Source: an archaeon
Lineage (GTDB): Archaea; Iainarchaeota; Iainarchaeia; Iainarchaeales; CSSED10-239
DNA length: 64,000 bases
Direction of reading: 5' to 3'
NCBI GenBank assembly: GCA_041657425.1
Contig: JBBABY010000005.1
Coordinates: forward strand, 22,834-86,833
In this document: one piece after another, positions 35,130 to 54,288 of the stretch
Numbering within the stretch: the first letter of the stretch is position 1
How the letters are laid out: every line of letters begins with the position of its first letter
Position numbers and translations under genes: made by a program
Notes under the pieces: generated by a model
What the model saw: only the letters and a program-made list of their open reading frames with translations
The model's database searches: none
What the model was told of the DNA's origin: nothing

Positions 35130-36089
35130 ATGAAAAATAATAATTACAAATTAATTACTTTTGCAATAGCGGCATTAGTAATTGGAGCAATACTTAGTAC
35201 ATTACTGATTAGTACAGTAAGTGCAGAAAAGACAGACCTTACAAATATAGATGCTCTTGAAATCACAGATCCAGAATCAAGAACAAATTTAATATTAAAT
35301 TTATTAAAAGTAAATAGAATACAAAATAGAAATAATAATCCATTATTTATTGATTCTAGTAATCAATTATCTATCAATGGAGATACTTATGTAAGTATTT
35401 CATCTCCAAACACTGCAAAATTAGGATCAGGAAATGCAGTAGTTAAAGCATTTGCTAATGGTCAAGAACAACAAGCCGGTTCAAAAGTAGAAATTAATGC
35501 AAATAATTTCTTTGTAGGACATGGTGGACAATCAGTATTTAAAATAATAGGCGGAGCTAACGAATACGGTGCACAATATTCTCAAGTAATAATAGAAACA
35601 GGAGTTCAAATGAACCATTATTTACAAGTTAATAATGGGCTTTATGCAGATGGCGCAAACATAGGCGAACATCATAATCAACCAGCATTACAAATTGTAA
35701 GAAATGGTCAATCCGGCAATTACACTTCAGAAATTACAATTAATGCTCCTACCAGATTTCCTAATCTTTCAGAAGGCGCCACCAATACTGGCGCAATATA
35801 TCATTTAGGAGATACTTTTCTTATAGAAAATTATACTGTAGAAGTTATGAATATTTGGGACGCAAATAACGCAGTTGAAATGCAATTAAGAAATGACGTT
35901 AATGGCATAATTGCAGAAGAAGTCTATAGTGAAGGAGATGCAATCTTTGAAGATTATCTTACCACAACTCTTATAGTAGATGGGATAGACTCAGATAGTG
36001 TAAGTATAGTTATACCATCAGGAAATACATACTATGCCTGTTTAACAGAAGACGGAACACTATTTAGAAGCAATGATCCTTGTAACTAA
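35130..36089 (+). CDS. secreted/surface protein, paralog family member A
   Basis: N-terminal TM/signal; shares module ESRTNLILNLLKVNRIQNR and about 95-aa C-terminal domain (GDTFLIEN...GNTYYAC...DGTLFRSNDPCN) with 37792..38628. Confidence 0.6.
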   Translation: MKNNNYKLITFAIAALVIGAILSTLLISTVSAEKTDLTNIDALEITDPESRTNLILNLLKVNRIQNRNNNPLFIDSSNQLSINGDTYVSISSPNTAKLGSGNAVVKAFANGQEQQAGSKVEINANNFFVGHGGQSVFKIIGGANEYGAQYSQVIIETGVQMNHYLQVNNGLYADGANIGEHHNQPALQIVRNGQSGNYTSEITINAPTRFPNLSEGATNTGAIYHLGDTFLIENYTVEVMNIWDANNAVEMQLRNDVNGIIAEEVYSEGDAIFEDYLTTTLIVDGIDSDSVSIVIPSGNTYYACLTEDGTLFRSNDPCN

Positions 36090-36125
36090 GCAAATTAACC
36101 AATAAGATTATTCTAGAAAAATAAT
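36090..36125 (+). terminator. hairpin plus T-tract after surface protein gene A
   Basis: Inverted repeat AAGATTATT-ctagaaaa-AATAATCTT followed by TTTTTTCTTTTT. Confidence 0.4.
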
Positions 36126-36269
36126 CTTATTTTTTCTTTTTATTCTATTTTTAAAAATCAGACAATTTGCAGAAAAAACTTGGCAGAAAGTTAGACAATT
36201 TGATTAAAAAAGTAAGCAATTTATCTAAAATTAGAGATATATTTAAAAACCTTTCGTTATATTATATAT

Positions 36270-37538
36270 TTGATAAATATGTTTGAAATATACAAAATTC
36301 AAAATCAACATTGGGAAAACAAATTATACGATTTACCAATAAAAAGAAAAATTTTAGAAACTTTAAAAAAAGAACTATTAAATCACAAATTAATTATTTC
36401 TATAGAGGGGCCAAGAAGAGTAGGGAAATCTGTTTTAATGAAACAATTGATTAATTATCTTATAGAAAATAAAGTGCCTTCAAAAAACCTATTTTATTTT
36501 TCTTTTGATAAACTTGATAAAAAGATATTAGATACATTAAAGGACTATGAGGAATTGTCCGGAATATCATTAAGAGAAGAAAAAACTTATTTATTTTTTG
36601 ACGAAATTCAAAAGATTAAAGATTGGCAATCAGATATTAAGATAATTTATGATAATTATCCAAATTTAAAAATAATAGTAAGTGGATCTACATTAAGAGT
36701 TAGTAAAAAAGAAAGCCTTGCAGGAAGGATTGTTGATTTTTTTATTAATCCTTTATCTTTCGAAGAATATCTTATATTTTCAGGTAAAGAAAAATTATTA
36801 GATTCAGAAATAGATTATATTTTTGAAAAAGAGTATAATAATTATTTATTTAGGCAATATCCAGATATTGTTTTAAATAAAGAAATAGATTCCACGCAAT
36901 ATATTTCATTAATTCTACAAAAAGTGATTTTTGAAGATTCGGAAAAGTATATTAGAAATGTGGATAAAGATATTTTATACAAAATTTGTATGATTATACT
37001 TAGAGATCCTGGGCAGATTATTAATTATTCTGACTTATCGAAAGATTTAGGTGTGAAAAGAGAAGTTGTTTCAAAATATATTGATTTTTTAGTTAATTCT
37101 GGAGTTGTAAAAAAAGTTTATAATTTTTCAAATAATTCTCGAAAATTAGAGATTAAATCTAAAAAGTTTTATCCGTATTGTACATCACTAACAAGAGCAG
37201 TAACTGATAATCCAGATATGGGTAAGATTATAGAGACTGATGTTTGTTTTCAATTAGATGCAAAATACTTTTTAAATAACAAAGGTAAAGAAGAAATAGA
37301 TTTTCTACTTATAGACCCGATAACTTCTAAAAAGATAGGGGTAGAAGTAAAATATAGAAATTTAATAACAAATAAAGACGTAAGTGCATTTAGATCAGCG
37401 ATAGTTAAAAAGTTAAATTTGGATAAAAGAATAATAATTGTAAAAGCAGAATCAAAATTAGATTTTAATACAAAAGAAATAGTTCCTGTCATGTATTTTA
37501 CAATCTTTAAACACCAATCAGAATTCAAATTTAAATAA
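36270..37538 (+). CDS. AAA+ superfamily ATPase (COG1373-like, AAA_14 plus DUF4143)
   Basis: Walker A GPRRVGKS, Walker B LFFDEIQ; architecture typical of archaeal COG1373 ATPases. Confidence 0.65.
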   Translation: MINMFEIYKIQNQHWENKLYDLPIKRKILETLKKELLNHKLIISIEGPRRVGKSVLMKQLINYLIENKVPSKNLFYFSFDKLDKKILDTLKDYEELSGISLREEKTYLFFDEIQKIKDWQSDIKIIYDNYPNLKIIVSGSTLRVSKKESLAGRIVDFFINPLSFEEYLIFSGKEKLLDSEIDYIFEKEYNNYLFRQYPDIVLNKEIDSTQYISLILQKVIFEDSEKYIRNVDKDILYKICMIILRDPGQIINYSDLSKDLGVKREVVSKYIDFLVNSGVVKKVYNFSNNSRKLEIKSKKFYPYCTSLTRAVTDNPDMGKIIETDVCFQLDAKYFLNNKGKEEIDFLLIDPITSKKIGVEVKYRNLITNKDVSAFRSAIVKKLNLDKRIIIVKAESKLDFNTKEIVPVMYFTIFKHQSEFKFK

Positions 37539-37722
37539 ATAATTCTGGGAAAATATGAACTCGCAAAAAAAGAAAAAAACAAAGAAGTTCTTTGCAGAAT
37601 TAAATAAAAGAAGCATAGAAGCAAAAGATAAATCTAATTTTATTTCTTTAAGGTATTTATAAACACAGTAAAGGCACTCTAATTCTTCCAAACACTTGGA
37701 AAAAACCATATATTTATAAATT

Positions 37723-37736
37723 CCCCCCCCCCCCCC
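37723..37736 (+). repeat. homopolymeric poly-C tract (C14) in promoter region of surface protein gene B
   Basis: 14 consecutive C between TTTATAAA and ATAGATAATATAG, 55 bp upstream of the ATG at 37792; unique in the window. Confidence 0.9.
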
Positions 37737-37791
37737 ATAGATAATATAGTATTAAAAAATTAATTAAAACAAAATTACGGAGGAAATTAAA

Positions 37792-38628
37792 ATGGCAAAA
37801 GAAAATAATAAAAAGCTAATCATTTGGGCGTTAGTCGCTTTAGTGGTTGGTGTAGTAATAGGTCTACTATTAACAAGTATAGTAACAACAGGAAATGCAG
37901 CAACCGCATTAGGTGAAAAATCAGCAACACTTGATACGAAAACCACAGAAGATAATGTAGTTGAATCAAGAACAAACTTAGTATTAAACTTATTAAAAGT
38001 AAATAGAATTGAAAATAGAGACGAAGATTTATTAATTCATGCAAATAGTGGAACTGAACGTCTTATGTTATGGGGAGACACAATGACAAATATTTGGGCT
38101 CCAAGCATAGATATTTCTGGATCTACAGCGGTCGCAATTTCTACACCTGTAAATTTTATAGGATTAGGAACAGATGGTATAAATATTTTTGCTCATAATT
38201 TTATGATTGCTAATTCAGAACAAACTCAAACAAATCCAATAATTTCACTTGATTTAGAAAATTCTGAATTAGTCATAAATGCATCCACTACAAAATTTAT
38301 AAATGTCGTATCTGTAAGTCCAATCATTTCAGAATATAGTGTAGGAGACACATTTACTATAGAAAATAATACTATAGAAGTTGCTGCCATTTGGGATGCA
38401 AATGGAGTAGTTGAAATGCATTTGTTCGATGCAAATATGATAAATCCAATTGTTGAATTTTACGGAGAAGGAGATATAATCTTTAATCAATATTTAACTG
38501 CAAGTTTAAAAGTAGAAAATATTTCTCAAAATGTAGTAGGCATTGTGGTTTTACCAACAGGCAACTCATATTATGCATGTATAGGATCTGATGGAACTTT
38601 GTTTAAAAGTAATTATCCATGTAACTAA
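37792..38628 (+). CDS. secreted/surface protein, paralog family member B
   Basis: N-terminus MAKENNKKLIIWALVALV shared with 50212 and 51300; ESRTNLVLNLLKVNRIENR and YYAC/PCN C-terminal domain shared with 35130. Confidence 0.6.
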   Translation: MAKENNKKLIIWALVALVVGVVIGLLLTSIVTTGNAATALGEKSATLDTKTTEDNVVESRTNLVLNLLKVNRIENRDEDLLIHANSGTERLMLWGDTMTNIWAPSIDISGSTAVAISTPVNFIGLGTDGINIFAHNFMIANSEQTQTNPIISLDLENSELVINASTTKFINVVSVSPIISEYSVGDTFTIENNTIEVAAIWDANGVVEMHLFDANMINPIVEFYGEGDIIFNQYLTASLKVENISQNVVGIVVLPTGNSYYACIGSDGTLFKSNYPCN

Positions 38629-38651
38629 ATAGAAATAAAAAATAAAATCAT

Positions 38652-39071
38652 TTATTTAAGATAGATGATTTTATTTCCATCTTTTATTTTTCTCCTTTTT
38701 GAATACTTGATTAAATAGTGTATCTTGCTTTTTGGAATGCCTAGTTTCTTTTCAAGGTCTCTGTAACTGTAGTCTTTGTATGTTTGTAAGATTTTTTGTA
38801 GTTTTTCTATCTTAATGTCAATTGGTCTTCCTTGTTCTTTTCTTATTGCAATTGTAATTTCTTTCTTTTTTATAAATTCCTTAATTGCTTTACTCAGTCT
38901 TTCATTAGTTGAATTAGAGATAGTTATCATCTTTAGTCTTTTACATCGGCTGAGTATTTTGTTAAGAACTGCTTTAGAGAAAGCCCTAGTGATATGTAGC
39001 TCTTCGCAGTTAGTATTAACTTGTCCTGCTTTTGTAAAGTCTGAAAGTGTATCTTTTACAGTGTAGTTCAT
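38652..39071 (-). CDS. hypothetical protein with C-terminal HTH
   Basis: 139 aa; C-terminal YRDLEKKLGIPKSKIHYLIK resembles a resolvase-type HTH; no catalytic domain recognised. Confidence 0.35.
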   Translation of the reverse strand: MNYTVKDTLSDFTKAGQVNTNCEELHITRAFSKAVLNKILSRCKRLKMITISNSTNERLSKAIKEFIKKKEITIAIRKEQGRPIDIKIEKLQKILQTYKDYSYRDLEKKLGIPKSKIHYLIKYSKRRKIKDGNKIIYLK

Positions 39072-39131
39072 ATTTGTCCAAGATTTAATAATTCAATATT
39101 TATATCTGGTAGATTAGATTTATAAATAAAT

Positions 39132-40841
39132 CTATGTGTTTAGAAATTCAAAGGTACTGGTTGTTCCTTTTTTAAATTTGTGATTTTTTAAGAAATCTAT
39201 GTGGTCAAATCTTTCTCTTGTAATTTTTTCTTTATCTGTGTCTTGTAGTTGTATAAAATTATTAATATCATAAGAACACAAAAATTCAGGCATAATCACA
39301 TAGTCTGCTCCAGCATGATATAATTCTAAAGCCACATCTATGTGATCATTAACTACAATAAATAAGATATTTTTGTTTTTAGATTTAATCTTAGATATTA
39401 AAAAGTGATTAATGGAATAAGAATTAATTGTTGATATAATTACTTTTATTTTAGAGAGATTTAGTTCTTCTGTTAATTCAACATTTCCTGCATCTCCATA
39501 AATATGATTAATTCTATTTTTTGTAAGTATTTTATCGATTTCGGGATTATGGTCAATTACCAAAAATTTTTTATTTTTCGTTTTAAGATATTCTCCAACA
39601 CCCATTCCTACTTTATTATATCCAAAGATGATATAATTATAATCTTCTATAATTTGCACTTCGTCTCTTGCATTTTTCTTTTCAAAGATATTTAGATATT
39701 TTCCGATTTTATCAAATATCCAATCAGAATATATTATCATGTAAGAAGAGCAAGTAATTGTTATTAGCCCTACAAAGGTAACAAATGAAAGAACCTCTGT
39801 TGTTAAATGTCCCGCAGTAATTCCTAAAGCGATAAGGATTAAAGAAAATTCAGAAATTTGAGCAACAGTAAGTCCTGCCATAAATCCTACTTTTTTTTTG
39901 TAACCCGATAGTCCCATAATAATCATAACAATTAAAGGATTACCTATTAAAATAAATAATGACAAAATTATTATTGGAATAATGTGTGCGGAAAAACTTC
40001 CAAAAGTCATTTGTAATCCTAATAATACAAAAAATAAAATCAAAAAGAAATCTCTTAGTGGTTTAAGCTTAAGGTTTATCTCAAATCTGTACGTTGAAAA
40101 AGACAAGAAAAATCCTGCAAGAAGCGCCCCGATTTCAATAGAGAAACCAAAGTAAAAAAACAATGCTGCAAGTATTAAACACCAACCAATTGAAAATAAT
40201 AATAAAAATTCTTGCGATTTTGCTACAAATTTAAGAAATTTAGGCAACAAATATATTGAAAATAATAACAATCCAATTACTAATCCAATGCCAATAAATA
40301 TATTAGTTAACATTGATGATTTGTTTTGTCCACTAAGAGAAGAAATAACAATTAAAACAACTATTGCAACAAGATCTTGAACAACTAAAAAACCAATAGA
40401 TATTTTTCCATAAAGAGAATTGACTGCCCCCTTATCTGTAAGCAACTTCATTATAATAATGGTACTACTAAATGCAAGAGCTAAAGACACATAAAGAGAA
40501 GTAACCCAATTAAATCCTATAAGTAAACAAATAAGATATCCTATACCAGTAGTAAAAACAATTTGACCAATACCTGTAAATAAGGAAACCTTGCCCACTT
40601 CTTTTAAGACTTTAGGATTAAGATTTATCCCTACCATAAATAACAATAAAGAAACGCCTATATGTGAAAATACCGTAATTGACGAGGTGTCTTTAATAAT
40701 ATTTAGAACATATGGACTAACTACAATTCCTGTAAGTATATATCCAATAATTAGTGGTTGCTTTAATAATCTAATAATTGTAGTTATGATAATAGCTATG
40801 AATATAATAATACAGATTTCAATAAAAAAATTATTAATCAT
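39132..40841 (-). CDS. CPA2-family K+/H+ antiporter (Kef-type) with TrkA-N domain
   Basis: Na_H_exchanger membrane domain followed by a Rossmann TrkA-N (IIFGYNKVGMGVGEYL). Confidence 0.7.
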   Translation of the reverse strand: MINNFFIEICIIIFIAIIITTIIRLLKQPLIIGYILTGIVVSPYVLNIIKDTSSITVFSHIGVSLLLFMVGINLNPKVLKEVGKVSLFTGIGQIVFTTGIGYLICLLIGFNWVTSLYVSLALAFSSTIIIMKLLTDKGAVNSLYGKISIGFLVVQDLVAIVVLIVISSLSGQNKSSMLTNIFIGIGLVIGLLLFSIYLLPKFLKFVAKSQEFLLLFSIGWCLILAALFFYFGFSIEIGALLAGFFLSFSTYRFEINLKLKPLRDFFLILFFVLLGLQMTFGSFSAHIIPIIILSLFILIGNPLIVMIIMGLSGYKKKVGFMAGLTVAQISEFSLILIALGITAGHLTTEVLSFVTFVGLITITCSSYMIIYSDWIFDKIGKYLNIFEKKNARDEVQIIEDYNYIIFGYNKVGMGVGEYLKTKNKKFLVIDHNPEIDKILTKNRINHIYGDAGNVELTEELNLSKIKVIISTINSYSINHFLISKIKSKNKNILFIVVNDHIDVALELYHAGADYVIMPEFLCSYDINNFIQLQDTDKEKITRERFDHIDFLKNHKFKKGTTSTFEFLNT

Positions 40842-40926
40842 ATAATATTTAAGAAATATATATTTATAAATACAACTCTAGTACATAATAACTAAGGACA
40901 ATATAAAAATTAAAATACGAAAAAAA

Positions 40927-42615
40927 ATGACACATTTACTATTATTGAATATTGCAATTATCATAATTTGTGCAACAGTAATGACATTTATTTTTACTAA
41001 ACTTAAACAACCATCTGTTCTCGCATTTATAGTAACTGGTATTTTAATAGGTCCGTTAGTTCTTGGTTGGGTTAATAATTCTGAAGAAATAATGTTAATT
41101 TCTGAAATTGGAATTGCCTTTCTTTTATTTAGTGTAGGAATTGGAACGGATTTAAAAGAATTAAAAAGTTTAAAATTATCGATTATTCTTTTGCCATTAA
41201 TAAATATAGTTCTTATGTTTATATTTTTATTTGTATTTAGTAAAGTTATTAATCTCACATTAATTCAATCATTATATTTTTCTGTCATATTGTCATTCAG
41301 TTCCACAATGTTAGTTGCTAAGATTTATTTAGATAATTTTATGATTGATTCTTTGCATGGGCGGATTGCGATCGGAATACTTCTTGTTGAAGATCTTATA
41401 GCCATTCTTGCAATTCCAATTTTAAAAAATTTCAGCGAATTTACATTTTTGATGTTTTTAATAATTCTTGCAAAGACTGCGGTATTTGTTCTTTTTGCTC
41501 TTTTTTTAAATAAAATTGTGTATCCTTATATTATAAAACAAGCATACAAATCTGAGCAAAGTTTCTTCTTATTATCAATTGCAAGTTGTTTTATATTTAT
41601 TATGTTATCTTATCTTCTTGATTTTCCAATGGCCGTTGGTGCATTTTTTGGGGGGGTTGCAATTTCTATTTATCCGTATAGTTACGAAATCTCTAATAAA
41701 ATCTCAAGTATAAGAGATCTTTTAGCAACTATTGTTTTTGTATCTTTAGGTATGCAGTTATCTTTAAATATTTCTAACGATATTTTCTTTATAATAGTAA
41801 TATTTATACTTGCATTTATAATAAAACCAATAATTCATTTCTTTATGATTTTATTTGCAGGATATGGTACAAAAATTTCTTTAAGAGTATCTGGAGATTT
41901 AAACCAGATTTCTGAATTTTCGTTAATAATAGCAATGCAAGGAATCGCTTTGGGGCAAATTACAAGTTCACAATATGCAATAGTGATTATAATTACTTCT
42001 CTATCAATGTTAACAACACCTTATGTAATGCTTAATAGTGAAAAGATATATACTTTCTTTAAACCAATAATGGATAGATTTAAGGAAGAATTTTGGCACA
42101 GGCAAATAAATTCATTGTCTACCATTTCAAAAGATATTAAAGATCACATAGTAGTAATTGGTTCAGATGTAATGACTGAAGGTTTCATAAAAGTAGTTTC
42201 AAGAGATGTAGATCAACCAATTATCTTAGTGGATTATAATCCAGAAAAGTTATTAGCTTTTCAAAACAAAAGAATAAAATATGTTTGTGGAGACATCAAC
42301 TATAAAGAAGTAATGAATGCAGTAAATTTAAAAGAAGCAAAACTTGCAATATTGACTGCTCCAAAGTTTGATACAACAATAAGATTTCTAAAAACTGCAA
42401 AAACAATTAACCCTCGGCTTCCAATTTATGTTAGAGCAAAAACTAAAAAAGAAGCATTACAATTATATGAGCTTGGTGCAGATTTAGTGATCTTACCACA
42501 TGTTTTAGAATCAAATTATCTTCTTCAAAAAGTTTATTCTTTTGTTAAAGATGGTCCCGAAAGAAACAAGGCTCTAAGATCTGAATATTTAAGTTATTTA
42601 AAAAAAGAAAATTAG
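40927..42615 (+). CDS. CPA2-family K+/H+ antiporter (Kef-type) with TrkA-N domain, paralog
   Basis: Same architecture as 39132..40841 (membrane domain plus VVIGSDVMTEGFIKVV Rossmann); divergently arranged. Confidence 0.7.
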   Translation: MTHLLLLNIAIIIICATVMTFIFTKLKQPSVLAFIVTGILIGPLVLGWVNNSEEIMLISEIGIAFLLFSVGIGTDLKELKSLKLSIILLPLINIVLMFIFLFVFSKVINLTLIQSLYFSVILSFSSTMLVAKIYLDNFMIDSLHGRIAIGILLVEDLIAILAIPILKNFSEFTFLMFLIILAKTAVFVLFALFLNKIVYPYIIKQAYKSEQSFFLLSIASCFIFIMLSYLLDFPMAVGAFFGGVAISIYPYSYEISNKISSIRDLLATIVFVSLGMQLSLNISNDIFFIIVIFILAFIIKPIIHFFMILFAGYGTKISLRVSGDLNQISEFSLIIAMQGIALGQITSSQYAIVIIITSLSMLTTPYVMLNSEKIYTFFKPIMDRFKEEFWHRQINSLSTISKDIKDHIVVIGSDVMTEGFIKVVSRDVDQPIILVDYNPEKLLAFQNKRIKYVCGDINYKEVMNAVNLKEAKLAILTAPKFDTTIRFLKTAKTINPRLPIYVRAKTKKEALQLYELGADLVILPHVLESNYLLQKVYSFVKDGPERNKALRSEYLSYLKKEN

Positions 42616-43670: not shown

Positions 43671-43740
43671 AATAATATTATAAAATAAAGCAATTTTTAA
43701 ATGTTTTTAAATACTCATTTTTATTAAAAGGAGCAAACAA

Positions 43741-44322
43741 ATGATAATCTTAATATGTGGTTTTTCTGCATCAGGTAAAAGCTATCTAGTTAATTCTGTG
43801 GCAGATAAACTAAACTATAAGCACGTTCATACTTCAGATATTCTTAATCAAATTGCGTGCGGGGTTTCTGAAAAGAAAGTAAATTGTAATAATACAAAAA
43901 TGAACACCGGTTGGTACGAGTTTTCAGGACTTGATGAAAAGCGAAAGAAAACAAATAATATAGATAAGAAATTGGATAAATATCTTCTAAACTTAGTAAA
44001 AACAAAAAACAATATTGTTCTTGATTCTTGGACACTACCATATTTAGTAAAAGATAATAAAAAAGTAATTAAGATTTGGTTAGATGCAACAGAAAAAATA
44101 AGATCACAAAGGCTTGCATTAAGAGACAAGATAACATACACAGAAGCACATAAGCTACTAAAAAGCAAAGATTCTTTTTCTAAGGAACATTTCCAAGAAC
44201 TCTATGGTTTTACGTTAGGGAAAGACAAACAAGTTTTTGATTTAGTAATTAATACAAATACTTTAAGTATAAAACAAGTAGAACAGAAAACTCTTGATTT
44301 TTTAAAAAAGAAAATTAAGTAG
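43741..44322 (+). CDS. P-loop nucleotide kinase, likely archaeal-type cytidylate kinase
   Basis: Walker A GFSASGKS; LID/C-terminal region IWLDATEKIRSQRLALRD matches the archaeal CMK pattern. Confidence 0.5.
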   Translation: MIILICGFSASGKSYLVNSVADKLNYKHVHTSDILNQIACGVSEKKVNCNNTKMNTGWYEFSGLDEKRKKTNNIDKKLDKYLLNLVKTKNNIVLDSWTLPYLVKDNKKVIKIWLDATEKIRSQRLALRDKITYTEAHKLLKSKDSFSKEHFQELYGFTLGKDKQVFDLVINTNTLSIKQVEQKTLDFLKKKIK

Positions 44323-45153
44323 TTATTTTTCTATTTTTTTTCTTAGTCTTTCAATAACAGAATAATCTACATTATATTTTCCAAGTTCATTTTCTGGAAA
44401 AAAAGTGCTTCCGTGAAAATCAGAGCCACCACTTTCAATTAAGCATAATTTTTTTGCAATTTCTTTTGATTCCACGATAAACGCATCATATTCACTTCCA
44501 TGTGGTCCAGTAGTTTCAATTCCTGAAAGTCCATAAGAAATAAGTTTAGATGAATAATATTCAAAGTCATTTCTAAGAGATAACGGGAGATACCAAGGGT
44601 GAGGAAGCACAGCAACTCCTCCTGCATTTTTTATTTCAGCAATTACTTTTTTAGCACTATATCTTTTTGGTTTATAGTCAATACTTATCTTCTTAATAAT
44701 TCCAACAAATGCTTCTTGTAAGTTTTGAACATAGCCGTTCTTTCTAAGTTCCAAAGCCAGGTGTGTAGCCATAACTTTTTGTGTTGGTCCTGCAAACTTA
44801 AAGATTGATTCCATTTCAACATTGTAGCCATTATCTTGTAACCAATAAATCTTTTGAGTAACGACGTCACTAATGGATTTTGAGTTTTCTTCTAAAATCT
44901 TAAGTAATGGTTCATAATTAGGATCAAAGAAATAACCAAGAATTTCTGTAGACTCACAATTAATTTCAACACCTGTAATTAATTCGATTTTTTCTTTTTT
45001 TGCAAATTTAGAAGCATCAGCCAAAGCATCAACGCCATTATGATCAGTAATTGCTAAAGCTTTAAGTTTCTTAGAAGAAGCAATTTTTATTAAATATTCA
45101 GGAGAATGAAAACCATCTGAATAGTAAGTGTGAGTGTGTAAATCACAGTTCAT
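44323..45153 (-). CDS. PHP-domain metal-dependent phosphoesterase
   Basis: CDLHTHTYYSDG...ALAITDHN PHP motifs. Confidence 0.7.
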   Translation of the reverse strand: MNCDLHTHTYYSDGFHSPEYLIKIASSKKLKALAITDHNGVDALADASKFAKKEKIELITGVEINCESTEILGYFFDPNYEPLLKILEENSKSISDVVTQKIYWLQDNGYNVEMESIFKFAGPTQKVMATHLALELRKNGYVQNLQEAFVGIIKKISIDYKPKRYSAKKVIAEIKNAGGVAVLPHPWYLPLSLRNDFEYYSSKLISYGLSGIETTGPHGSEYDAFIVESKEIAKKLCLIESGGSDFHGSTFFPENELGKYNVDYSVIERLRKKIEK

Positions 45154-45169
45154 TTGTTTTCTTCCCGCT

Positions 45170-45379
45170 TTATTGCATAGTCTTGGTTGCTAGTTTTATA
45201 TCTTCGCCAGTAACTGTTTTTCTTTTTGCGTGCTTTGCAAGTTCAATTGCTTGTTTTGAGATGTCCATAGCTACTTCAGAAAGAATCTTACTTAGTTCTT
45301 CTGCTGCGTCTTCTGACACTCTTTCTGCTCCTGCCTTTCTAATAAGTCTATCGATTGCTGCAACTGGTAAATCAGTCAT
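45170..45379 (-). CDS. archaeal histone (HMf-like)
   Basis: 69 aa; histone fold [22 protein letters not shown]...[17 protein letters not shown]; GGGGGT RBS. Confidence 0.88.
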
Positions 45380-45480
45380 AAAATAACCCCCATATTTAAT
45401 TTAAATAAATTATAACGCTTTTCGTTTATAAGATGGTACTTCAAAAGCTTTTTAAATAAAACCTCTAAAAGATATATACT

Positions 45481-46374
45481 ATGACGCTATTAGATTCCAT
45501 TCTTTTGCAGATTAATCAAAAGAAAACAAGCTTTAATGAGCTATTAACAAGAATCATACCTAATTATTCAAGTACAGAATCAGCAAGAGCTGCTCTTTTT
45601 CGTGTTATTAAAAACCTGGTGTCGTTTGGTTATATTCAAAAAACTGAAGATTTTTACGAGATAACTGAGAAAGGAAAAAAGATGGTGGAGTCAAAGCTTC
45701 AAGATAAGATGCTAAATAATATAAATAGCATAAATGATCTTCTTCAAAAATCTCAACCTGCAAAATCTCTACAATATCTTGATGACATGGTTAGAAATTT
45801 ACAAATATTTTTAGAAAGATCAAAAGAAGACCAAACTCTTTTAAAGATAGGTAAAACAAGTGTTACTTTTTATGTTTCAGATTTAGAAGATATAAAAACA
45901 AATGTCGCAAGTAGATTAACAAAATTTGAACAATCTTTTGATAGGCAGATACAGTCTTTAAAGGATTTAAATTTTGAAGATCAGTTTGTTATTAATCTTG
46001 ACAATAACGCTTTTGAGTTGATTAAAGAATTATCCACTAGTAACAACGTTTCAGAACTAATAATTGATTGTGATAAGACAGATATCAATTCAGGGATGCT
46101 TTTTGAAACACATGCAGAGTTTGCAAAAAAGCCAGATAATGTTTTTATTCTTAAGCAAGCAGACATAGATGTTTTAAAGAAATTATTATTATCAAGACTT
46201 GACATAATAATGCAGACTAGATTTAAGACCTACATTAAAGAAATTGTAATTTATTTAAAGGTTGGAAAGCTTTACTTCACAGGCCCTTACAATCAGATAG
46301 TTACAATTAAAGAAAGCTATTCTAAACTAACAGAACCAGAAAAGAAAGAAGTTAAAGAAAAAATAATATCTTAA
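45481..46374 (+). CDS. hypothetical protein, possible N-terminal winged-helix
   Basis: 297 aa; N-terminal region resembles wHTH; remainder unknown. Confidence 0.4.
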   Translation: MTLLDSILLQINQKKTSFNELLTRIIPNYSSTESARAALFRVIKNLVSFGYIQKTEDFYEITEKGKKMVESKLQDKMLNNINSINDLLQKSQPAKSLQYLDDMVRNLQIFLERSKEDQTLLKIGKTSVTFYVSDLEDIKTNVASRLTKFEQSFDRQIQSLKDLNFEDQFVINLDNNAFELIKELSTSNNVSELIIDCDKTDINSGMLFETHAEFAKKPDNVFILKQADIDVLKKLLLSRLDIIMQTRFKTYIKEIVIYLKVGKLYFTGPYNQIVTIKESYSKLTEPEKKEVKEKIIS

Positions 46375-46375
46375 A

Positions 46376-46446
46376 GCAACTATAGTCTAGTGGTAGGATG
46401 CAAGCTTCCCAAGCTTGCGACTCGGGTTCGAATCCCGGTAGTTGCA
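46376..46446 (+). tRNA. tRNA-Gly (CCC)
   Basis: Acceptor GCAACTA/TAGTTGC, anticodon stem CAAGC/GCTTG, loop TTCCCAA, T-loop TTCGAAT. Confidence 0.8.
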
Positions 46447-46451
46447 CTGCC

Positions 46452-46478
46452 TTTTCTTTTCTTGTAAGAAAAGAAAAT
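46452..46478 (+). terminator. perfect 12-bp inverted repeat hairpin downstream of tRNA-Gly
   Basis: TTTTCTTTTCTT-gta-AAGAAAAGAAAA immediately 3' of the tRNA. Confidence 0.4.
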
Positions 46479-46573
46479 GTAAGCTGCCAAAAGAAAAGAA
46501 CTATAAGGTGCCAAAAACGGCAGGTGTCGAAAGAAAACACGAACGATTAAAAAAATAATTAAACGGCAAAATT

Positions 46574-47155
46574 ATGTCAACTGTTAAAATACTTGTAGAA
46601 GGTTATGCTCACGAAGGAAAAGATTGTTATGAAGCAACTTGTTCGACAGTTTTAATTGAGGATTCCGGAAAAAGAATAATTGTTGATCCAGGTTGTAACG
46701 AGAAACTACTTCTTAATGCATTAAAGAAAGAAAAATTAACCCCAAAAGATATTGATTTAATTTTCTTAACACATTATCATATTGATCACTTATTAAATAT
46801 AAGATTATTTCCTGGAATTGATATCTTAGATGGAGACATAATTTATCGTGGAGATAAAGAATTTTCTTTTAAAAAGAAAATACCTGGCACAAATATTGAA
46901 GTAATAGAAACTCCAGGCCACGCACACGAACAAGTAACTCTTTTAGTAAAAACTGAAAAAGGCATCATTGCAATTGCGGAAGACTTATGGTGGTGGGAAG
47001 ATGGAAAACAAAAAACAGATAAGAAATCATTATTATCTTTAAAAGATCCATTTGTAAAAAATAAGCAAGCATTATTGAAAAGCAGGAAATTAATATTACA
47101 AAAAGCAGACTATATAATTCCAGGACACGGAAAAATGTTTAAAGTAGAAAAGTGA
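46574..47155 (+). CDS. metallo-beta-lactamase fold hydrolase
   Basis: HxHxDH motif (THYHIDHL) and downstream His/Asp ligands. Confidence 0.65.
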   Translation: MSTVKILVEGYAHEGKDCYEATCSTVLIEDSGKRIIVDPGCNEKLLLNALKKEKLTPKDIDLIFLTHYHIDHLLNIRLFPGIDILDGDIIYRGDKEFSFKKKIPGTNIEVIETPGHAHEQVTLLVKTEKGIIAIAEDLWWWEDGKQKTDKKSLLSLKDPFVKNKQALLKSRKLILQKADYIIPGHGKMFKVEK

Positions 47156-47160
47156 GTGTT

Positions 47161-47355
47161 ATGAAACTAGGAAAATATAAACACTACAAGGGGAAGATTG
47201 TAGAAGTTATTAGTGTTGGTAAGCACACAGAGACAAATGAAGATTTAGTAATCTATAAAGAAGGAAAAAACTTTTGGGTAAGACCAGAAAAAATCTTTAA
47301 AGAGAAAGTAATTGTAAATGGAAAATCAGTTTCAAGATTTAAATATATAAAATAA
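47161..47355 (+). CDS. DUF1653-like small protein
   Basis: GKYKHYKGKIVEV...YKEGKNFWVRPEKIF pattern. Confidence 0.45.
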   Translation: MKLGKYKHYKGKIVEVISVGKHTETNEDLVIYKEGKNFWVRPEKIFKEKVIVNGKSVSRFKYIK

Positions 47356-47374
47356 AAAGGAAGTGAAAAATAGT

Positions 47375-48715
47375 ATGAAAACAAGATTTTATGAAAATGC
47401 AGGACTTTCTAGTCCAAAGGTATTATTACCAAAAAAAGAAATAGATTATACTAAATGGTCAGTTGTTGCTTGTGACCAGTATACCTCTGAACCAGAATAT
47501 TGGAATTCTGTTAAAGAGATTGTAGGAAACAATCCCTCAACATTAAAAATAACATTCCCTGAAATTTATCTTGAAGATTCAGACAAAGAAGAAAGAATTT
47601 CAAATATTGTAACAACAATGAAAGAATATATTTCAAAAAAAATGTTTGATGAACATATGGGGTTCATTTATGTTGAAAGACAAATAAAAGACAAAATAAG
47701 AAAAGGATTAGTAGTTGCTTTAGATTTAGAAAAATATGATTATAATAAAGGTTCAACAACACTTGTCAGAGCAACAGAAGGAACAATTTTAGAAAGACTT
47801 CCACCAAGGATTGAAATACGTAAAGATGCACCTTTAGAATTGCCACACATAATGGTATTAATTGATGATCCTAAAGGGAAAGTTATTGAAAAGATTAGCG
47901 AGAATAAAAAAGATTTTGAAAAAGTATATGATTTTAATCTTATGAAAAAAGGTGGGCATATTGAAGGTTATCTAGTAAATAAAAGATTTGAAAAGAAAGC
48001 AGCTAAAGAATTAGAAAGACTTGCTAGTCCAGAAAAATTTAAAAAGAAATATAAGTTAGATAAAGATTATCCTGTTCTTTTGTATGCTGTTGGAGATGGC
48101 AATCATTCTCTAGCAACAGCTAAAGCAGTTTGGGAGAATCTAAAGAACACTGCAGAAAACAAAGTTGAAATAATGAACCATCCTGCAAGATTTGCTTTAA
48201 TTGAACTTGTTAATCTTCATGACGAGTCTTTAGAGTTTGAAGCAATTCACAGAGTATTATTTAATCTAAAGAAAGACATTGTTAAAGAAATGAAAAATCA
48301 TTTTGGAGATTGTTTTAGTTTTTCTAAAAAATCAAAAGAAGAAGTTATTGAAATAATAAAAACAAAGAAAAGCAAAGATAAACATTTTATTGGTTTAATT
48401 ACAGAGAATCCTAAAACAACTGGAATCATAAAAGTGGCTAGTCCGAAATCAAACTTGCCAGTTGGGACAATACAGGATTTCTTGGACAGTTTTGGTAAAT
48501 CAGGTGGCTTTGAAAAGATAGACTATGTCCATGGCGAGGATGTGGTGTGCTCTCTTGGTCAAAAACCAAACAACGCAGGAATCTATCTTCCAACAATTCA
48601 AAAGAAACAATTCTACAAAACTGTAATTGTTGATGGCGCTTTACCAAGAAAGACATTTTCAATGGGAGAAGCACACGAGAAAAGATATTATTTAGAGACA
48701 AGAAAGATTAGGTAA
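47375..48715 (+). CDS. DUF1015 family protein
   Basis: Length and N-terminal pattern consistent with COG4198/DUF1015; function unknown. Confidence 0.45.
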   Translation: MKTRFYENAGLSSPKVLLPKKEIDYTKWSVVACDQYTSEPEYWNSVKEIVGNNPSTLKITFPEIYLEDSDKEERISNIVTTMKEYISKKMFDEHMGFIYVERQIKDKIRKGLVVALDLEKYDYNKGSTTLVRATEGTILERLPPRIEIRKDAPLELPHIMVLIDDPKGKVIEKISENKKDFEKVYDFNLMKKGGHIEGYLVNKRFEKKAAKELERLASPEKFKKKYKLDKDYPVLLYAVGDGNHSLATAKAVWENLKNTAENKVEIMNHPARFALIELVNLHDESLEFEAIHRVLFNLKKDIVKEMKNHFGDCFSFSKKSKEEVIEIIKTKKSKDKHFIGLITENPKTTGIIKVASPKSNLPVGTIQDFLDSFGKSGGFEKIDYVHGEDVVCSLGQKPNNAGIYLPTIQKKQFYKTVIVDGALPRKTFSMGEAHEKRYYLETRKIR

Positions 48716-48788
48716 AAACCTAATCTAAAAATATAGTATTTAAACACAAGTAAACAGTATATATATTACCATTAAGGAGGAAACAATT

Positions 48789-49670
48789 ATGAGTTTAAAA
48801 GAACAATTTGAAAAATTAAAAGAAAATTGGTTATTAATTCTTTTAGTAGTATTAGTTTTAGGAACGATGATTTACTTACCAAACATAAGTGTTGGTTCAA
48901 GTTATAATTATGCTTCTGATTCTGCACTAGGAGGATATGCTCCCGCTTATGCAAAAGAAAGCTATCTAAATTATCAAAATCAAAATTTCTCTCCAGAAGT
49001 ATTGAACCGTAAAATCGTTAAAACTTCAAATTTAGGAATTGAAACAAAGATAGGTAAATTTAAAGAAACAGATTCTCAAGTAAGAGAGGTAGTTAAAGGA
49101 ACCGAATCAATAATTATAACTGAAAACATTTATTCAAATAAATTTGATTCAAAGGAAATATTTACAGGCAACTACACAATTAAAGTAAAAACAGATAAAC
49201 TAGATTTAGTAACAAATCAACTTAAGACTTTAGGAAAAGTAACAAGTTTTAATCAAGGAGCTGATGACGTTACTGGAGAATACACAAATGTAAACATAGA
49301 ATTACAAGTTGAAAAAGAAAGACTTGAAAGATTTCAAGAAATGTATGCAGAAGCTGAAGAAATTAAAGATAAAATAGAATTAAACGACAGAATCTTTAAT
49401 CAAGAAAGAACAATTAAATATCTAGAAGATTCAATAAAAGATGTTGATCAAAGAATTGACTATTCAACAATCTATTTAACAATAAACGAAAGGTCAGACT
49501 ATCTAGGTATTGCTTTTGTTAAGTTATCAGATCTTTTAAGATCATTTATGAGCAGTTTAAATTCCTTAGTAAGACTAATAGTAGTAGTTCTTCCTTGGGT
49601 ATTGATTGCAGGATTTATTTACGCAGTAAGTAAGTTAACCAAAAAGCAAGAAATCAAGAAGAAAAGATAA
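48789..49670 (+). CDS. membrane-anchored protein (DUF4349-like: N-terminal TM, coiled coil, C-terminal TM)
   Basis: Hydrophobic N- and C-terminal segments with an extracytoplasmic coiled-coil middle. Confidence 0.4.
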   Translation: MSLKEQFEKLKENWLLILLVVLVLGTMIYLPNISVGSSYNYASDSALGGYAPAYAKESYLNYQNQNFSPEVLNRKIVKTSNLGIETKIGKFKETDSQVREVVKGTESIIITENIYSNKFDSKEIFTGNYTIKVKTDKLDLVTNQLKTLGKVTSFNQGADDVTGEYTNVNIELQVEKERLERFQEMYAEAEEIKDKIELNDRIFNQERTIKYLEDSIKDVDQRIDYSTIYLTINERSDYLGIAFVKLSDLLRSFMSSLNSLVRLIVVVLPWVLIAGFIYAVSKLTKKQEIKKKR

Positions 49671-49718
49671 TTTTTCTTTTCTTTTCTATTTTTATTATTT
49701 TCTAATCTAATATTATTT

Positions 49719-50135
49719 ATGTTAAAAATATACTTTGCAGGATCAATTAGTGGTGGAAGAGATGACCAAGAAATCTATTTTGAATTAATAAATTATCTTA
49801 AGACTAAGGGACAAGTTCTAACAGAGCATATTTCAGATAAAAATTTAAGTTCTTATGGCGAGAGCAATAAATTAACTTCTGAGCAAATCTTTACAAGAGA
49901 TGTAAACTGGTTAAAAGAATCAGATATTGTTGTTGCAGAAGTTACTCAAGTTTCTTTAAGTGTTGGTTATGAATTAGGGCTTTCTGAAAGTTTAAATAAA
50001 AAAGTAATTTGCCTATATCGTCAAAAAGAAGGAAAAAGACTTTCAGCAATGATTTCTGGTAACCACAACTTCTTAGTTAAAGAATATCAAACAATAGAAG
50101 AAGCAAAAAGGATTATTGATGAGATTTTCAAATGA
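49719..50135 (+). CDS. 2'-deoxynucleoside 5'-phosphate N-hydrolase (DNPH1/Rcl-like; nucleoside 2-deoxyribosyltransferase fold)
   Basis: IYFAGSISGGRDDQ...VLTEH...DVNWLKESDIVVAEVTQVSLSVGYELG...RLSAMISG closely matches DNPH1/Rcl motifs. Confidence 0.65.
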   Translation: MLKIYFAGSISGGRDDQEIYFELINYLKTKGQVLTEHISDKNLSSYGESNKLTSEQIFTRDVNWLKESDIVVAEVTQVSLSVGYELGLSESLNKKVICLYRQKEGKRLSAMISGNHNFLVKEYQTIEEAKRIIDEIFK

Positions 50136-50138
50136 ACA

Positions 50139-50152
50139 ATATATATATATAT
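50139..50152 (+). repeat. (AT)7 dinucleotide repeat in promoter of surface protein gene C
   Basis: ATATATATATATAT; the paralogous position upstream of gene D has (AT)6. Confidence 0.85.
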
Positions 50153-50211
50153 TTCGTTCATTCATTCTATTAAATTACAATTAAATAATTAAAAAATTGG
50201 AGGAAACCAAA

Positions 50212-51162
50212 ATGGCAAAAGAAAATAATAAAAAGCTAATCATTTGGGCATTAGTAGCTTTAGTGATTGGTGTAATAATAGGGTTAGTAATAACAAACCT
50301 GACAACAACAGGAAAAGGGGGTTATATCTCTGAAATTCACCAGATTCGTCCAAAAACACAGGTTGGGATAACTATGCCTATTCCAATTTATTTGGAGTTA
50401 GTTCAAGAAATAGATAGTGTTAATGGTGGAACAGGTACTATTAATAAGTATGCGTTTATTGAAAACGAAGAATTTCACTCTAATTTACCCGGGAAAGTTA
50501 GAAAAAATACCACCGTCAACTTTTCTGATGGCACAGTATTATCTGACGATTATACTTCAGAATTAGAGTATTCTGCATATTATTCAGAATATATTGCAGG
50601 AACCTTTTTTGGTCCATTTACTTCAATAGAGGCTACTATATATGATATGAAAGTAACTTCTATAATTGATGCACACTTTAAAATAGGTTCTAAAATAATA
50701 CCTAAATCATTAACAACTGTATTTAATCCGAATGAAGATTTATTTGCAGTAGTTAATAGTCTTGATTTAGATTGTAGTGGTCAATATAATCTAACACATT
50801 CAGAAGTAGGAGATATTGATGAAATATCTGGGAATTTATATATTTCTCAATATAATCAAGGCACCGGTTGGACTAATGTTTTACAGGATTACCCTTTAGA
50901 TTTAACCTCGTCAGCAGATAATACCTATACAGGATATATTCCAGCATCTGCAATAACTCAGTTAAACAATGGAAGTCAGTACATTAGAGTGTCGATTAAT
51001 AGTCACATTATTACTGCAACAGGATTACAAACAAGTGCAGAAATGCACAAATATCTAAATTGTCAAACCAATAAATCTGAATCATTAACTCCTGAAGAAA
51101 TAAAGGACGTGAGAAAGATAACAGGCTATAAATCAATAGATGAAAGAGCAAAAATAAAATAA
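50212..51162 (+). CDS. secreted/surface protein, paralog family member C
   Basis: N-terminus MAKENNKKLIIWALVALVIGV shared with genes B and D; C-terminal YLNCQ motif shared with D; start moved to the ATG at 50212 after the GGAGG RBS (track ORF begins at 50197). Confidence 0.6.
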   Translation: MAKENNKKLIIWALVALVIGVIIGLVITNLTTTGKGGYISEIHQIRPKTQVGITMPIPIYLELVQEIDSVNGGTGTINKYAFIENEEFHSNLPGKVRKNTTVNFSDGTVLSDDYTSELEYSAYYSEYIAGTFFGPFTSIEATIYDMKVTSIIDAHFKIGSKIIPKSLTTVFNPNEDLFAVVNSLDLDCSGQYNLTHSEVGDIDEISGNLYISQYNQGTGWTNVLQDYPLDLTSSADNTYTGYIPASAITQLNNGSQYIRVSINSHIITATGLQTSAEMHKYLNCQTNKSESLTPEEIKDVRKITGYKSIDERAKIK

Positions 51163-51230
51163 GTTCTAACTACACAAAATGAGATTATTTAATTAATCTT
51201 ATTTTTCTTTTTCTTTTTTCTTAAGCGGCA

Positions 51231-51242
51231 ATATATATATAT
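51231..51242 (+). repeat. (AT)6 dinucleotide repeat in promoter of surface protein gene D
   Basis: ATATATATATAT inside a ~175-bp block near-identical to 50139..50317. Confidence 0.85.
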
Positions 51243-51299
51243 CGTTCATTCATTCTATTAAATTACAATTAAATAATTAAAAAATTGGAGGAAACCAAA

Positions 51300-52247
51300 A
51301 TGGCAAAAGAAAATAAAAAATCATTAATCATTTGGGCATTAGTAGCTTTAGTGATTGGTGTAATATTAGGATTAGTAATAACAAATTTATCAACAACAGG
51401 ACAAGCAAAATCTATAACAGAGGTTGCGCCAAGAACATTAATTGGCACGGGATATAATTTTGTATTATATCAAAATATGAGTTTTGAAAATCCAAATGGA
51501 GAATATCTTTTATGGACGCAAGAAAACTTACAATCTAATGTTCCTGCAAGAATTAAAAAAGAATCTTCAATGTCATATAATTTAGACGATTTCAGACCAT
51601 ACTTTCTTAATTCTTCTATAACTAATACAGAAAGAGCAGAAAATAGCAATTTAGGTTATGCTGCATATCCAGAAACTGTTTTATGGTTTCCAAACACAAC
51701 AAACACCCCCACCGTGTCCTATTCTTATTTTACAGAATGGACTTTTGGTAATGGAGTGACTAAAACAGAAGGTACTGGTTATTCAGTAAATGAAAATTAT
51801 AATTCATTTATAGAAGCAAGTTCTTTAAATGTAAATTGTTCTAATTATGAACTTGTTCATTCTACCCCTACGGGAATTAATTATCTTGGATATCAATTCT
51901 ATATATATGATACAACTTACAATTATGATCAAGTTTATTACGGGTCTTGGATAGAAGCAAGAATAAATCCTAACGGTATTCAACAAGGAAATTTGCCACA
52001 AGAGGCAATAGATATATTGCAAAATAATAATGGATATGAGGGAGTATTGATTGCACATATATCTACTACCGAGAATATGTATACTGTGGTTTACAGTGCT
52101 AATACTTATTTAAATTGTCAAAATGGCGCAATTACTAAATTAAATTCTGATGGTTTACAAAAATTACAACAAAAAACAGGAACTCCAATAGACGTAATAA
52201 AAAAATTACATGAAGAAGGTAAGATGCCTTTTACAGTACAAAAATAA
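51300..52247 (+). CDS. secreted/surface protein, paralog family member D
   Basis: Same 5' block as gene C (signal/anchor region identical at the DNA level), divergent body, YLNCQ C-terminal motif; start moved to the ATG at 51300 after the GGAGG RBS (track ORF begins at 51285). Confidence 0.6.
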   Translation: MAKENKKSLIIWALVALVIGVILGLVITNLSTTGQAKSITEVAPRTLIGTGYNFVLYQNMSFENPNGEYLLWTQENLQSNVPARIKKESSMSYNLDDFRPYFLNSSITNTERAENSNLGYAAYPETVLWFPNTTNTPTVSYSYFTEWTFGNGVTKTEGTGYSVNENYNSFIEASSLNVNCSNYELVHSTPTGINYLGYQFYIYDTTYNYDQVYYGSWIEARINPNGIQQGNLPQEAIDILQNNNGYEGVLIAHISTTENMYTVVYSANTYLNCQNGAITKLNSDGLQKLQQKTGTPIDVIKKLHEEGKMPFTVQK

Positions 52248-54205: not shown

Positions 54206-54288
54206 GCAGAGATGGCGGAGTGGCCAAACGCGCCAGCCTTGAGAGCTGGAGTCGAAAGACTACGCGAGTTCGAATCTCGTTCTCTGCG
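54206..54288 (+). tRNA. tRNA-Ser (TGA)
   Basis: Acceptor GCAGAGA/TCTCTGC, anticodon stem CCAGC/GCTGG with loop CTTGAGA, long variable arm, T-arm GCGAG-TTCGAAT-CTCGT. Confidence 0.85.

Follow-up and report, generated by a model that had tools for sequence, protein, structure and literature searches.

Two protein families of an archaeal lineage are probably exported and expressed from a portable leader cassette reassorted by recombination

We analysed four genes, here named A, B, C and D, that lie within positions 35,130-52,247 of a 64,000-nt stretch of archaeal DNA (contig JBBABY010000005.1, assembly GCA_041657425.1, positions 22,834-86,833; hereafter the window). The results indicate that these genes probably represent two exported families expressed from a lineage-specific, portable leader cassette, and that this cassette has been reassorted by recombination at its edges. 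The cassette architecture, the recombinant junctions, the polymorphism in tract length and the export-type composition of the proteins were directly observed. Genes were compared with one another by pairwise BLAST (blastp and at the DNA level), all modules were also sought across the window, and related metagenome contigs or genomes (L001-L032) with their proteins (P0005-P0125) were included in the comparison. The gene content of the window (Topo VI, POR, exosome, prefoldin, CTP synthase) is typical of archaeal chromosomes, and the archaeon, which is uncultured, is AT-rich (29% GC).

An earlier note on this DNA had described A, B, C and D as one mosaic family of four paralogs with unrelated central regions. 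All four open reading frames (ORFs) were found on the plus strand at the positions given there. However, the end-to-end blastp alignments resolved two families, A/B (family 1) and C/D (family 2), with one common leader. A and B shared 35% amino acid (aa) identity over 331 columns (E 5e-49), end to end save for an A-specific insertion of ~70-88 aa (residues 118-205), and C and D shared 29% identity end to end (E 3e-31). Because each pair is homologous over its whole length, the genes are not four shuffled mosaics, and their central regions are related within each pair. Short DNA islands of high identity stood on a lower-identity, full-length background within each pair. Searches of Pfam, NCBIfam, PHROGs and PDB sequences gave no match for any of A-D; elsewhere in the 64-kb window there were no further copies of any A-D module, and no second copy of the bodies was present besides the A/B homology. 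Judged by sequence comparison, A/B and C/D are two unrelated, uncharacterised and apparently new protein families.

The common element is a leader of 36 codons (MAKENKK-LIIWALVALVIGV..TTG(N/Q/K)AK; consensus M(A)K(E/N)(N/K)xK-LIIWAxVALVIGVxxG(L/M)xITNxTTG(N/Q/K)AK), which was present in B, C and D, all with the N-terminus MAKEN(N/K)K(K/S)LIIWALVALV, and diverged in A. With a leader hidden Markov model (HMM), A scored 42 bits, and B, C and D scored 68-74 bits. The leader consists of a basic, Lys-rich N-terminus, a hydrophobic helix of ~22 residues with an invariant GxxxG, and a small-x-small end. The identity of about 90% that had been given for the leader DNA of B, C and D was reached between C and D (92.6% over 175 nt, 50143-50317 vs 51231-51405, of which ~70 nt are non-coding upstream sequence), but not between B and C (84% over 138 nt) or B and D (80% over 142 nt). 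For C and D, the genuine start codons are the ATGs at 50212 and 51300, 8-9 nt behind GGAGG. A TTG-start 'MEETK' extension of five codons (50197, 51285) was rejected as an ORF-caller artefact, since the TTG belongs to the AATTGGAGG ribosome-binding site; the database entry P0006 ('MEETKMAKEN...') bears the identical misextension.

The leader was preceded by a promoter region with a simple-sequence tract and a 5' untranslated region (5'UTR) of ~55 nt with GGAGG, which together with it make up the cassette. Alignment of upstream regions revealed two unrelated cassette types, tied neither to body family nor to locus. Type I, composed of (AT)4-11, TCG(G/T)T(C/T)ATTC(A/C)TTCT, an AT-rich stretch and GGAGG, was carried by C, D and both L001 genes, with a shorter related version at L012 and L013. 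Type II, composed of TTTATAAA, a poly-C tract (range 10-17), (A)T(T/A)(A/T)ATAATATA and GGAGG, was carried by B, by the family-2 genes of L002, L005, L020-L029, L030 and L031, and by the family-1 gene of L011. No simple-sequence tract was present 5' of gene A.

Sharp junctions were found at both ends of the cassette. Window positions 36291-37899 matched L020 positions 1-1608 at 84.8% identity, and the match ended at about codon 36 of the leader. This homologous block spans an AAA_14 gene, a small ORF, the poly-C cassette and the leader; it is followed by a family-1 body (B) in the window and by a family-2 body in L020. The two genomes are close (CTP synthase 88% identical). At the upstream side, the L026 gene equals the L020 gene (0/915 differences), yet its cassette and upstream region have clearly diverged. 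Gene D bears a type I cassette nearly identical to that of C, and its ortholog in L030 (P0005, 86% identical) bears a type II poly-C cassette. An exact look-up of protein B returned no record, but a metagenome scan located a near-identical copy of B on L018 (1/834 nt different). This copy was identical 3' of the tract and diverged 5' of it, a case to be read with caution as it lies near a contig end. The earlier note had attributed the module sharing to recombination or gene conversion; sharp boundaries were indeed found, at the cassette's two ends and reaching into the promoter, in place of uniform divergence, but intragenomic conversion did not hold as the general cause (P = 0.74, see below).

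In related contigs, family-1 genes occupy a slot between prefoldin-beta and a DUF1699 gene, and family-2 genes occupy a slot convergent with CTP synthase. Both slots are doubled in the window (A, the AAA_14 gene with a 35-aa ORF, and B; C and D), and gene A sits in the ancestral family-1 slot, right after prefoldin-beta. Slot genes were 25-46% identical between genomes and their neighbours 77-88%, a discrepancy that the recombination junctions explain. For family 2, genomes with CTP synthases 82-88% identical carried slot genes only 25-46% identical, and the family comprised deeply divergent types at one slot. Close orthologs showed a low ratio of nonsynonymous to synonymous substitution rates (dN/dS): 0.15 for D/P0005 (dS 0.52), the same as for the neighbouring CTP synthase (control 0.15), and 0.30 for P0006/P0007. 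These values (0.15-0.30) ruled out diversifying selection, and no signal of positive selection was found. The low dN/dS in close orthologs suggests that diversity arose by replacement and re-assortment and not by accelerated point substitution; as far as these alignments go, divergence at the family-2 slot is allelic replacement, not fast drift. Database searches returned about a dozen full-length C/D relatives, and hits that at first seemed to share the C/D N-terminus alone turned out to be A/B-family members.

The modularity claimed in the earlier note was borne out between genomes for family 1, in which a module matrix revealed combinatorial exchange. The leader, the stalk (M1) and the C-terminal M5 Cys loop were constant (family C-terminus ...YACxxxDGTLxxSxxPCN; M5 consensus ...YACLxxDGTLxRSxxPCN), and internal modules were combined variously: M2a + M4 in B, a private insertion + M4 in A, M2a + M3 in P0012, M3 + M4 in P0011, M2b + M3 + M4 in P0014, M2b only in P0024 and M4b in P0021. 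Both A/B elements described earlier were recovered, the ESRTNL(I/V)LNLLKVNRI(Q/E)NR block as a 57-nt stalk island of 91% identity and the shared C-terminal domain, which runs from residue 216 to the end of A, with 60% of its aa and, over ~300-347 nt, 67% of its DNA identical. The stalk island was genome-specific: A and B agreed at 17/20 aa and 88% of nt, compared with 6-9/20 aa and 57-65% of nt between genomes, and the same codon was used at 14 of 17 identical residues vs 9.2 expected (P = 0.015). AlphaFold models were built from alignments of the database relatives. That of B comprised a helix (residues 7-40), a low-confidence middle and a confident beta-domain (about residues 176-255). In the model of C, two beta-sandwich domains came after a helix (residues 6-34), and the C-terminal tail was charged and of low confidence (predicted local distance difference test, pLDDT, 67). 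Fold matches were generic, namely Ig-like sandwiches for C and a small beta-domain for B. Gene C has Cys188 and Cys284, the latter in the YLNCQ motif, which occurs, as had been noted, in both C and D.

We then surveyed the spread of the leader with a HMMER profile of its first 41 residues, run exhaustively against 1.84 billion cluster representatives. The profile recovered 115 leader-bearing representatives at a threshold of E <= 1e-3, of which 36 also passed E <= 1e-10, and their bodies were unrelated. The search for further cassettes suggested in the earlier note thus extended the leader far beyond the window. Hits outside the two families were mostly short (70-200 aa) and often Cys-rich, with unrelated bodies (P0029-P0125), and the variant form MKNEKTKLIIWAVVALVIGVIIG..TTGNAK predominated among these small proteins. 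Small leader proteins were located at L012 1675, L013 5001, L014 5001, L016 4998 and 5536, and L017 1339, and several share contigs. The leader is not the generic signal of the genome, as an exported DUF4349 protein (48789-49670) has a different N-terminus.

Several features agree with the secreted or surface nature proposed for A-D. A hydrophobic leader with predicted N-in/C-out orientation was present in all four, and the bodies had an export-type composition, with an isoelectric point of 4.2-4.8, 15-19% charged residues (26-38% in 12 cytoplasmic window proteins), 37-45% N+S+T+G+Y (21-31% in these controls) and exactly two Cys each. By inspection, the residues after the helix fit the -3/-1 rule of signal peptidase I (SPase I); they read V-S-A↓E in A and G-x-A↓K in the other three genes and in the census, and the leader may be cleaved by this enzyme. 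A-D would accordingly be either membrane-anchored with N-in/C-out topology or secreted. No leader contained a lipobox Cys, and the archaeosortase-type ending (PGF-CTERM: C-terminal PGF motif, transmembrane helix and basic tail) was absent; family 2 ends in a charged, soluble tail. The adhesin or S-layer-like role suggested in the earlier note may apply, and the proteins may serve host attachment in a possibly DPANN-type cell.

The simple-sequence tracts were confined to a few positions. The C14 tract of the B cassette was the sole C/G homopolymer of at least 8 nt in the window (C10 expected by chance, 0.00), and (AT) runs of at least 6 units occurred only as the C and D tracts ((AT)6 expected by chance, 0.02). 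Across species with near-saturated synonymous sites, the tract was kept 55-62 nt before the ATG. It appears to sit either downstream of a TATA-like box and ahead of the presumed start site, or where a second TATA-like box would have its B recognition element (BRE). Protein P0008 was encoded by ten contigs from different samples with 0/915 nt differences in the gene, and the seven of them that span the tract had poly-C lengths of 11, 11, 13, 13, 15 (interrupted by one A), 16 and 17 in short-read assembly consensus. A hypermutable tract would be expected to show such a spread, although the lengths are consensus values from short reads. Contigs of independent assemblies also break at or near the poly-C (L004 1-15, L024 1-21, L027 1-4, L030 1-18), which fits length heterogeneity or poor read quality there.

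The mechanism we propose would work as follows. Homologous recombination at the cassette's two edges would allow loci, and also related genomes, to exchange promoters, leaders and bodies, and within family 1 the internal modules would reassort between the constant stalk and the constant C-terminal Cys loop. Slippage of the tract may change initiation dependent on TATA-binding protein (TBP) and transcription factor B (TFB), giving phase-variable or graded expression, and the A-D proteins may contact other cells, viruses or surfaces. A wider version, which we put forward only tentatively, is an archaeal contingency-locus system in which the slipping tract tunes or switches expression, the conserved ends and possibly a hairpin serve as recombination handles, and more than 100 exported families, from 45-residue Cys-rich peptides to 300-residue Ig-like proteins, are plugged into a few slots of a small-genome, probably symbiotic lineage.

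The identity of the leaders at the codon level allowed conversion, constraint and exchange to be weighed. At identical amino acids, leaders used the same codon in 75-93% of cases vs ~46% expected from codon usage, and the bodies were at expectation; housekeeping genes of the compared genomes (74-78% aa identical overall) used the same codon in 58-66% vs 54% expected. The model of the earlier note, one mosaic family of four paralogs with patches kept similar by recent within-genome gene conversion, is unlikely, although the L001 leaders, the L012/L013 leaders and the A/B stalk island look like within-genome homogenisation. In L001, the leaders of both families have private variants in common (GLFITTAV, CTA codon) and are 75% codon-identical mutually, those of L012 and L013, on one contig, are mutual nearest neighbours, and the nearest leader of B is that of C, also within its own genome; the genome-specific stalk island speaks for the same model, as does the C/D cassette, 92.6% identical including 70 nt of non-coding sequence over bodies of 29% identity. 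Yet A/B and C/D are separate families with full-length homology, the A leader shows no codon excess with B (40% vs 46% expected), and the nearest leaders of D and C lie in L020 (98%) and L008 (92%). Codon identity among the leaders of the window, L002 and L005 (82-93%) is as high as within the window, and a global permutation test revealed no difference between within- and between-genome leader identity (P = 0.74), which ruled out universal within-genome concerted evolution of the leader. As leaders are as alike between as within genomes, intragenomic gene conversion is not the general explanation; this P value and the nearest leader of D in L020 indicate that clade-wide constraint or inter-genome exchange must also act. 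Constraint alone, without recombination, would mean very strong purifying selection on the leader and 5' region at two levels, that of the peptide (through a dedicated export or assembly partner) and that of the RNA (through a hairpin in codons 8-20 and translation initiation), and we regard this as similarly improbable. It agrees with a leader kept clade-wide on 115 clusters and conserved between genomes to the same degree as within them. A predicted hairpin in the leader coding region was 94.6% paired in 20 distinct leaders, compared with <= 56% for slid controls, and one of its pairs, formed by two synonymous third positions, showed compensatory changes (CG 13, AU 2, UA 2); these data are suggestive of a conserved leader hairpin, with covariation resting on about three events. 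Single-sequence z-scores were not significant (-1.2 to -1.9), and same-codon conservation was barely higher in the hairpin codons (69%) than after them (62%), which ruled out the hairpin as the sole cause of synonymous conservation. Further, at the sharp junctions one upstream block is joined to bodies of different families and identical genes are joined to different cassettes, the two unrelated cassette types interchange, and L001 leaders are saturated relative to window leaders (50% vs 46% expected) while 75% alike mutually.

For the tracts, it is possible but doubtful that poly-C and (AT)n are neutral or structural (recombination scars, unusual BRE/TATA elements or assembly-error hot spots) and involve no switching. 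Short reads call homopolymers longer than 10 badly, contigs end at the tract, and (AT)n itself may act as a TATA box. The tract is nevertheless held at its distance from the ATG despite near-saturated synonymous sites, the lengths of 11-17 exceed a +/-1 calling error with 915 nt of flanking gene unchanged, the tracts are confined to promoters of leader genes, and promoter-tract switching of surface proteins has a bacterial precedent (PMC2268961). It is very unlikely that A-D are type IV pilin-like or archaellin-like filament subunits with the hydrophobic helix as core and the variable domains exposed. Their N-terminal helix (residues 6-34 or 7-40 in the AlphaFold models), variable beta-rich body and predicted extracellular location recall archaeal type IV pilins and archaellins, and family 1 has a C-terminal disulfide loop; however, the class III motif ([K/R]-[G/A]) is absent, the -1 residue before the hydrophobic stretch being S or K and not G/A in all aligned leaders (MAKENKKS↓LIIW, MKNEKTK↓LIIW), with no charged +5 residue. 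Also, no Pilin_N or archaellin Pfam match at E <= 0.1 and no NCBIfam match was obtained, no pilus ATPase or platform genes were found in the window or in syntenic loci, and the TTG(N/Q/K)AK after the helix resembles an SPase I c-region. The reading that we favour, two exported families on a recombining leader cassette with a putatively slipping tract, is itself weakened by several points. The permutation result shows no excess of within-genome likeness, and part of the leader's nucleotide conservation may be selective, through the hairpin, and not recombinational. Long homopolymers are error-prone in short-read assemblies, and the (AT)n tracts of the only other assembly of C/D, L032, are identical to those of the window. 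The hydrophobic stretch of 22 residues may stay in the membrane as a permanent anchor, and A-D show no enrichment of N-glycosylation sequons.

Host-associated Mycoplasma, Neisseria and Haemophilus are textbook examples of bacteria that switch surface proteins stochastically and exchange their cassettes. In the promoter contingency loci of Neisseria and Haemophilus (opc poly-C, porA poly-G, hif TA repeats), tract length varies between strains and alters the -35/-10 spacing of sigma-70 promoters, and there is no common leader cassette. The likeness to A-D lies in a poly-C or dinucleotide tract in a surface-protein promoter, with lengths of 10-17; given the apparent position of the tract relative to the TATA-like boxes (see above), another mechanism would be needed here. 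The vlp/vsp/vpma families of Mycoplasma (M. hyorhinis, M. bovis, M. agalactiae) combine a conserved 5'UTR and signal-peptide region with divergent mature parts that share blocks, and in vlp a promoter homopolymer slips in length and switches transcription (PMC2268961). Similarly, a conserved 5'UTR and leader are here common to genes with unrelated or 29%-identical bodies, and the promoter tract varies in length between assemblies (poly-C 11-17; consensus sequences, not reads); the small genomes and host dependence of mycoplasmas may be counted as a further likeness. In contrast to these systems, the promoter is of TATA/BRE and not -35/-10 type, the tract is poly-C or (AT)n and not poly-A, lipobox Cys, in-body tandem repeats and a nearby site-specific recombinase are absent, the genes occupy two conserved chromosomal slots and not one cluster, and switching is putative.

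Conotoxins and the mussel MgCRP-I family (PMC4558851) combine a near-invariant signal region with unrelated or hypervariable, often Cys-rich mature sequences, and the small Cys-rich leader proteins of the census resemble them. Those families are eukaryotic and arose by gene duplication with exon structure, whereas the cassette described here is prokaryotic, includes the promoter and is probably exchanged by recombination. In DPANN archaea such as Nanoarchaeota, hypervariable surface proteins, targets of diversity-generating retroelements (DGRs) and diversified symbiosis proteins have been reported (PMC6142677). Likewise, the present genomes belong to uncultured small archaea with fast-changing, uncharacterised surface proteins, and L002 has a DGR near its family-2 gene; the difference is that variation in A-D would occur by exchange of cassettes, alleles and modules and not by mutagenic retrohoming. 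A recent review leaves the distribution of phase-variable loci in archaea to future work (PMC11868660), although according to a preprint archaeal contingency loci have already been studied (PMC12633550). In the literature we found neither this leader family nor archaeal promoter-tract switching described.

If the tract controls expression, uncultured small-genome archaea (from sludge- or digester-type metagenomes) would share an evolutionary solution with these bacteria, built on an archaeal promoter architecture, and the locus would offer a testable case for the effect of homopolymer length on TBP/TFB-dependent initiation. The 36-codon leader would then also be a handle for cataloguing the exported and interaction proteome of the lineage, including its small Cys-rich proteins. 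Even without switching, the results provide two new protein families, a lineage-specific export leader and documented recombination junctions.

Table 1. Positions in the window of genes A-D, their cassettes and associated features
Feature	Position	Strand	Details
Gene A (family 1, 319 aa)	35130..36089	+	Diverged leader, residues 1-32, ending VSA; stalk; insertion; M4 beta-domain, residues 224-295; M5 Cys-loop end, residues 302-319
Stalk island, A copy (57 nt)	35274..35330	+	ESRTNLILNLLKVNRIQNR; 91% identical to B copy
AAA_14/DUF4143 ATPase gene	36270..37538	+	Pfam match; between A and B; 89% aa and 85% DNA identity to L020 (L020 1-1248)
Small basic ORF (35 aa)	37555..37662	+	MNSQKKKKTKKFFAELNKRSIEAKDKSNFISLRYL; between AAA_14 gene and B cassette; without family match
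Type II cassette of B	37713..37791	+	TATA-like TTTATAAA 37713-37720; C14 37723-37736; 55-nt AT-rich 5' region; GGAGG 37779-37783
Gene B (family 1, 278 aa)	37792..38628	+	Canonical leader, residues 1-36 (37792-37899); stalk; M2a, residues 79-143; M4 beta-domain, about residues 176-256 (pLDDT > 90); M5 Cys-loop end, residues 257-278
Stalk island, B copy (57 nt)	37963..38019	+	91% identical to A copy
Type I cassette of C	50139..50211	+	(AT)7 50139-50152; TCGTTCATTCATTCT; AT-rich 5' region; GGAGG
Gene C (family 2, 316 aa)	50212..51162	+	Leader, residues 1-36; two beta-sandwich domains, ~residues 51-171 and 181-283
Predicted hairpin in leader	50235..50271 (C)	+	Codons LIIWALVALVIG (LIIWAxVALVIG); equivalents 51323-51359 (D), 37815-37851 (B), 35150-35186 (A)
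Type I cassette of D	51231..51299	+	(AT)6 51231-51242; rest as in C
Gene D (family 2, 315 aa)	51300..52247	+	Convergent with CTP synthase (52261-53928, minus); conserved family-2 slot

The neighbours of A-D were prefoldin, AAA_14, DUF1699, Nuc_deoxyrib_tr and CTP synthase genes, and no site-specific recombinase was found among them. Tandem Repeats Finder detected no tandem-repeat arrays inside A-D, which ruled out size variation based on such repeats. The 35-aa basic ORF was kept upstream of the cassette, with conservative substitutions, in L020-L023 and L026. An AAA_14/DUF4143 gene lay directly 5' of the leader cassette in two different slots, that of B in the window and that of the L020 family-2 gene, and in L002, L003 and L031 a ParE/RHH toxin-antitoxin pair occupied the equivalent position. 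With AAA_14 in two slots and ParE/RHH elsewhere, selfish or defence-type genes seem to have an insertion hot spot just upstream of the cassette. The DGR of L002 (5069-8152; Lcl_C-domain target, bAvd and RVT_1) lies 2-5 kb upstream of the family-2 gene on a contig of 440 kb. A tblastn search with the L002 reverse transcriptase, bAvd and Lcl_C proteins found no DGR parts in the window, and a DGR mechanism was ruled out for A-D, as the window lacked both a reverse transcriptase and Avd and showed no template/variable repeat pair.

Elsewhere in the window, LAGLIDADG homing-endonuclease domains occurred in the inteins of two housekeeping genes, which encode a TPP-enzyme (POR-type) subunit (6462-8510, minus strand) and a NifU-like scaffold (14613-16208, minus strand). 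Two divergent genes of the Na+/H+ exchanger-TrkA_N type (39132-40841, minus strand; 40927-42615, plus strand) correspond to single genes in L001 and L005, and represent a third local duplication in the stretch besides A/B and C/D. The known RNA families of the window were limited to five tRNAs, of which two matches on the plus strand (54206-54288 and 55071-55153) were 83 nt long compared with 71-73 nt for the other three, and may have a long variable arm or an intron.

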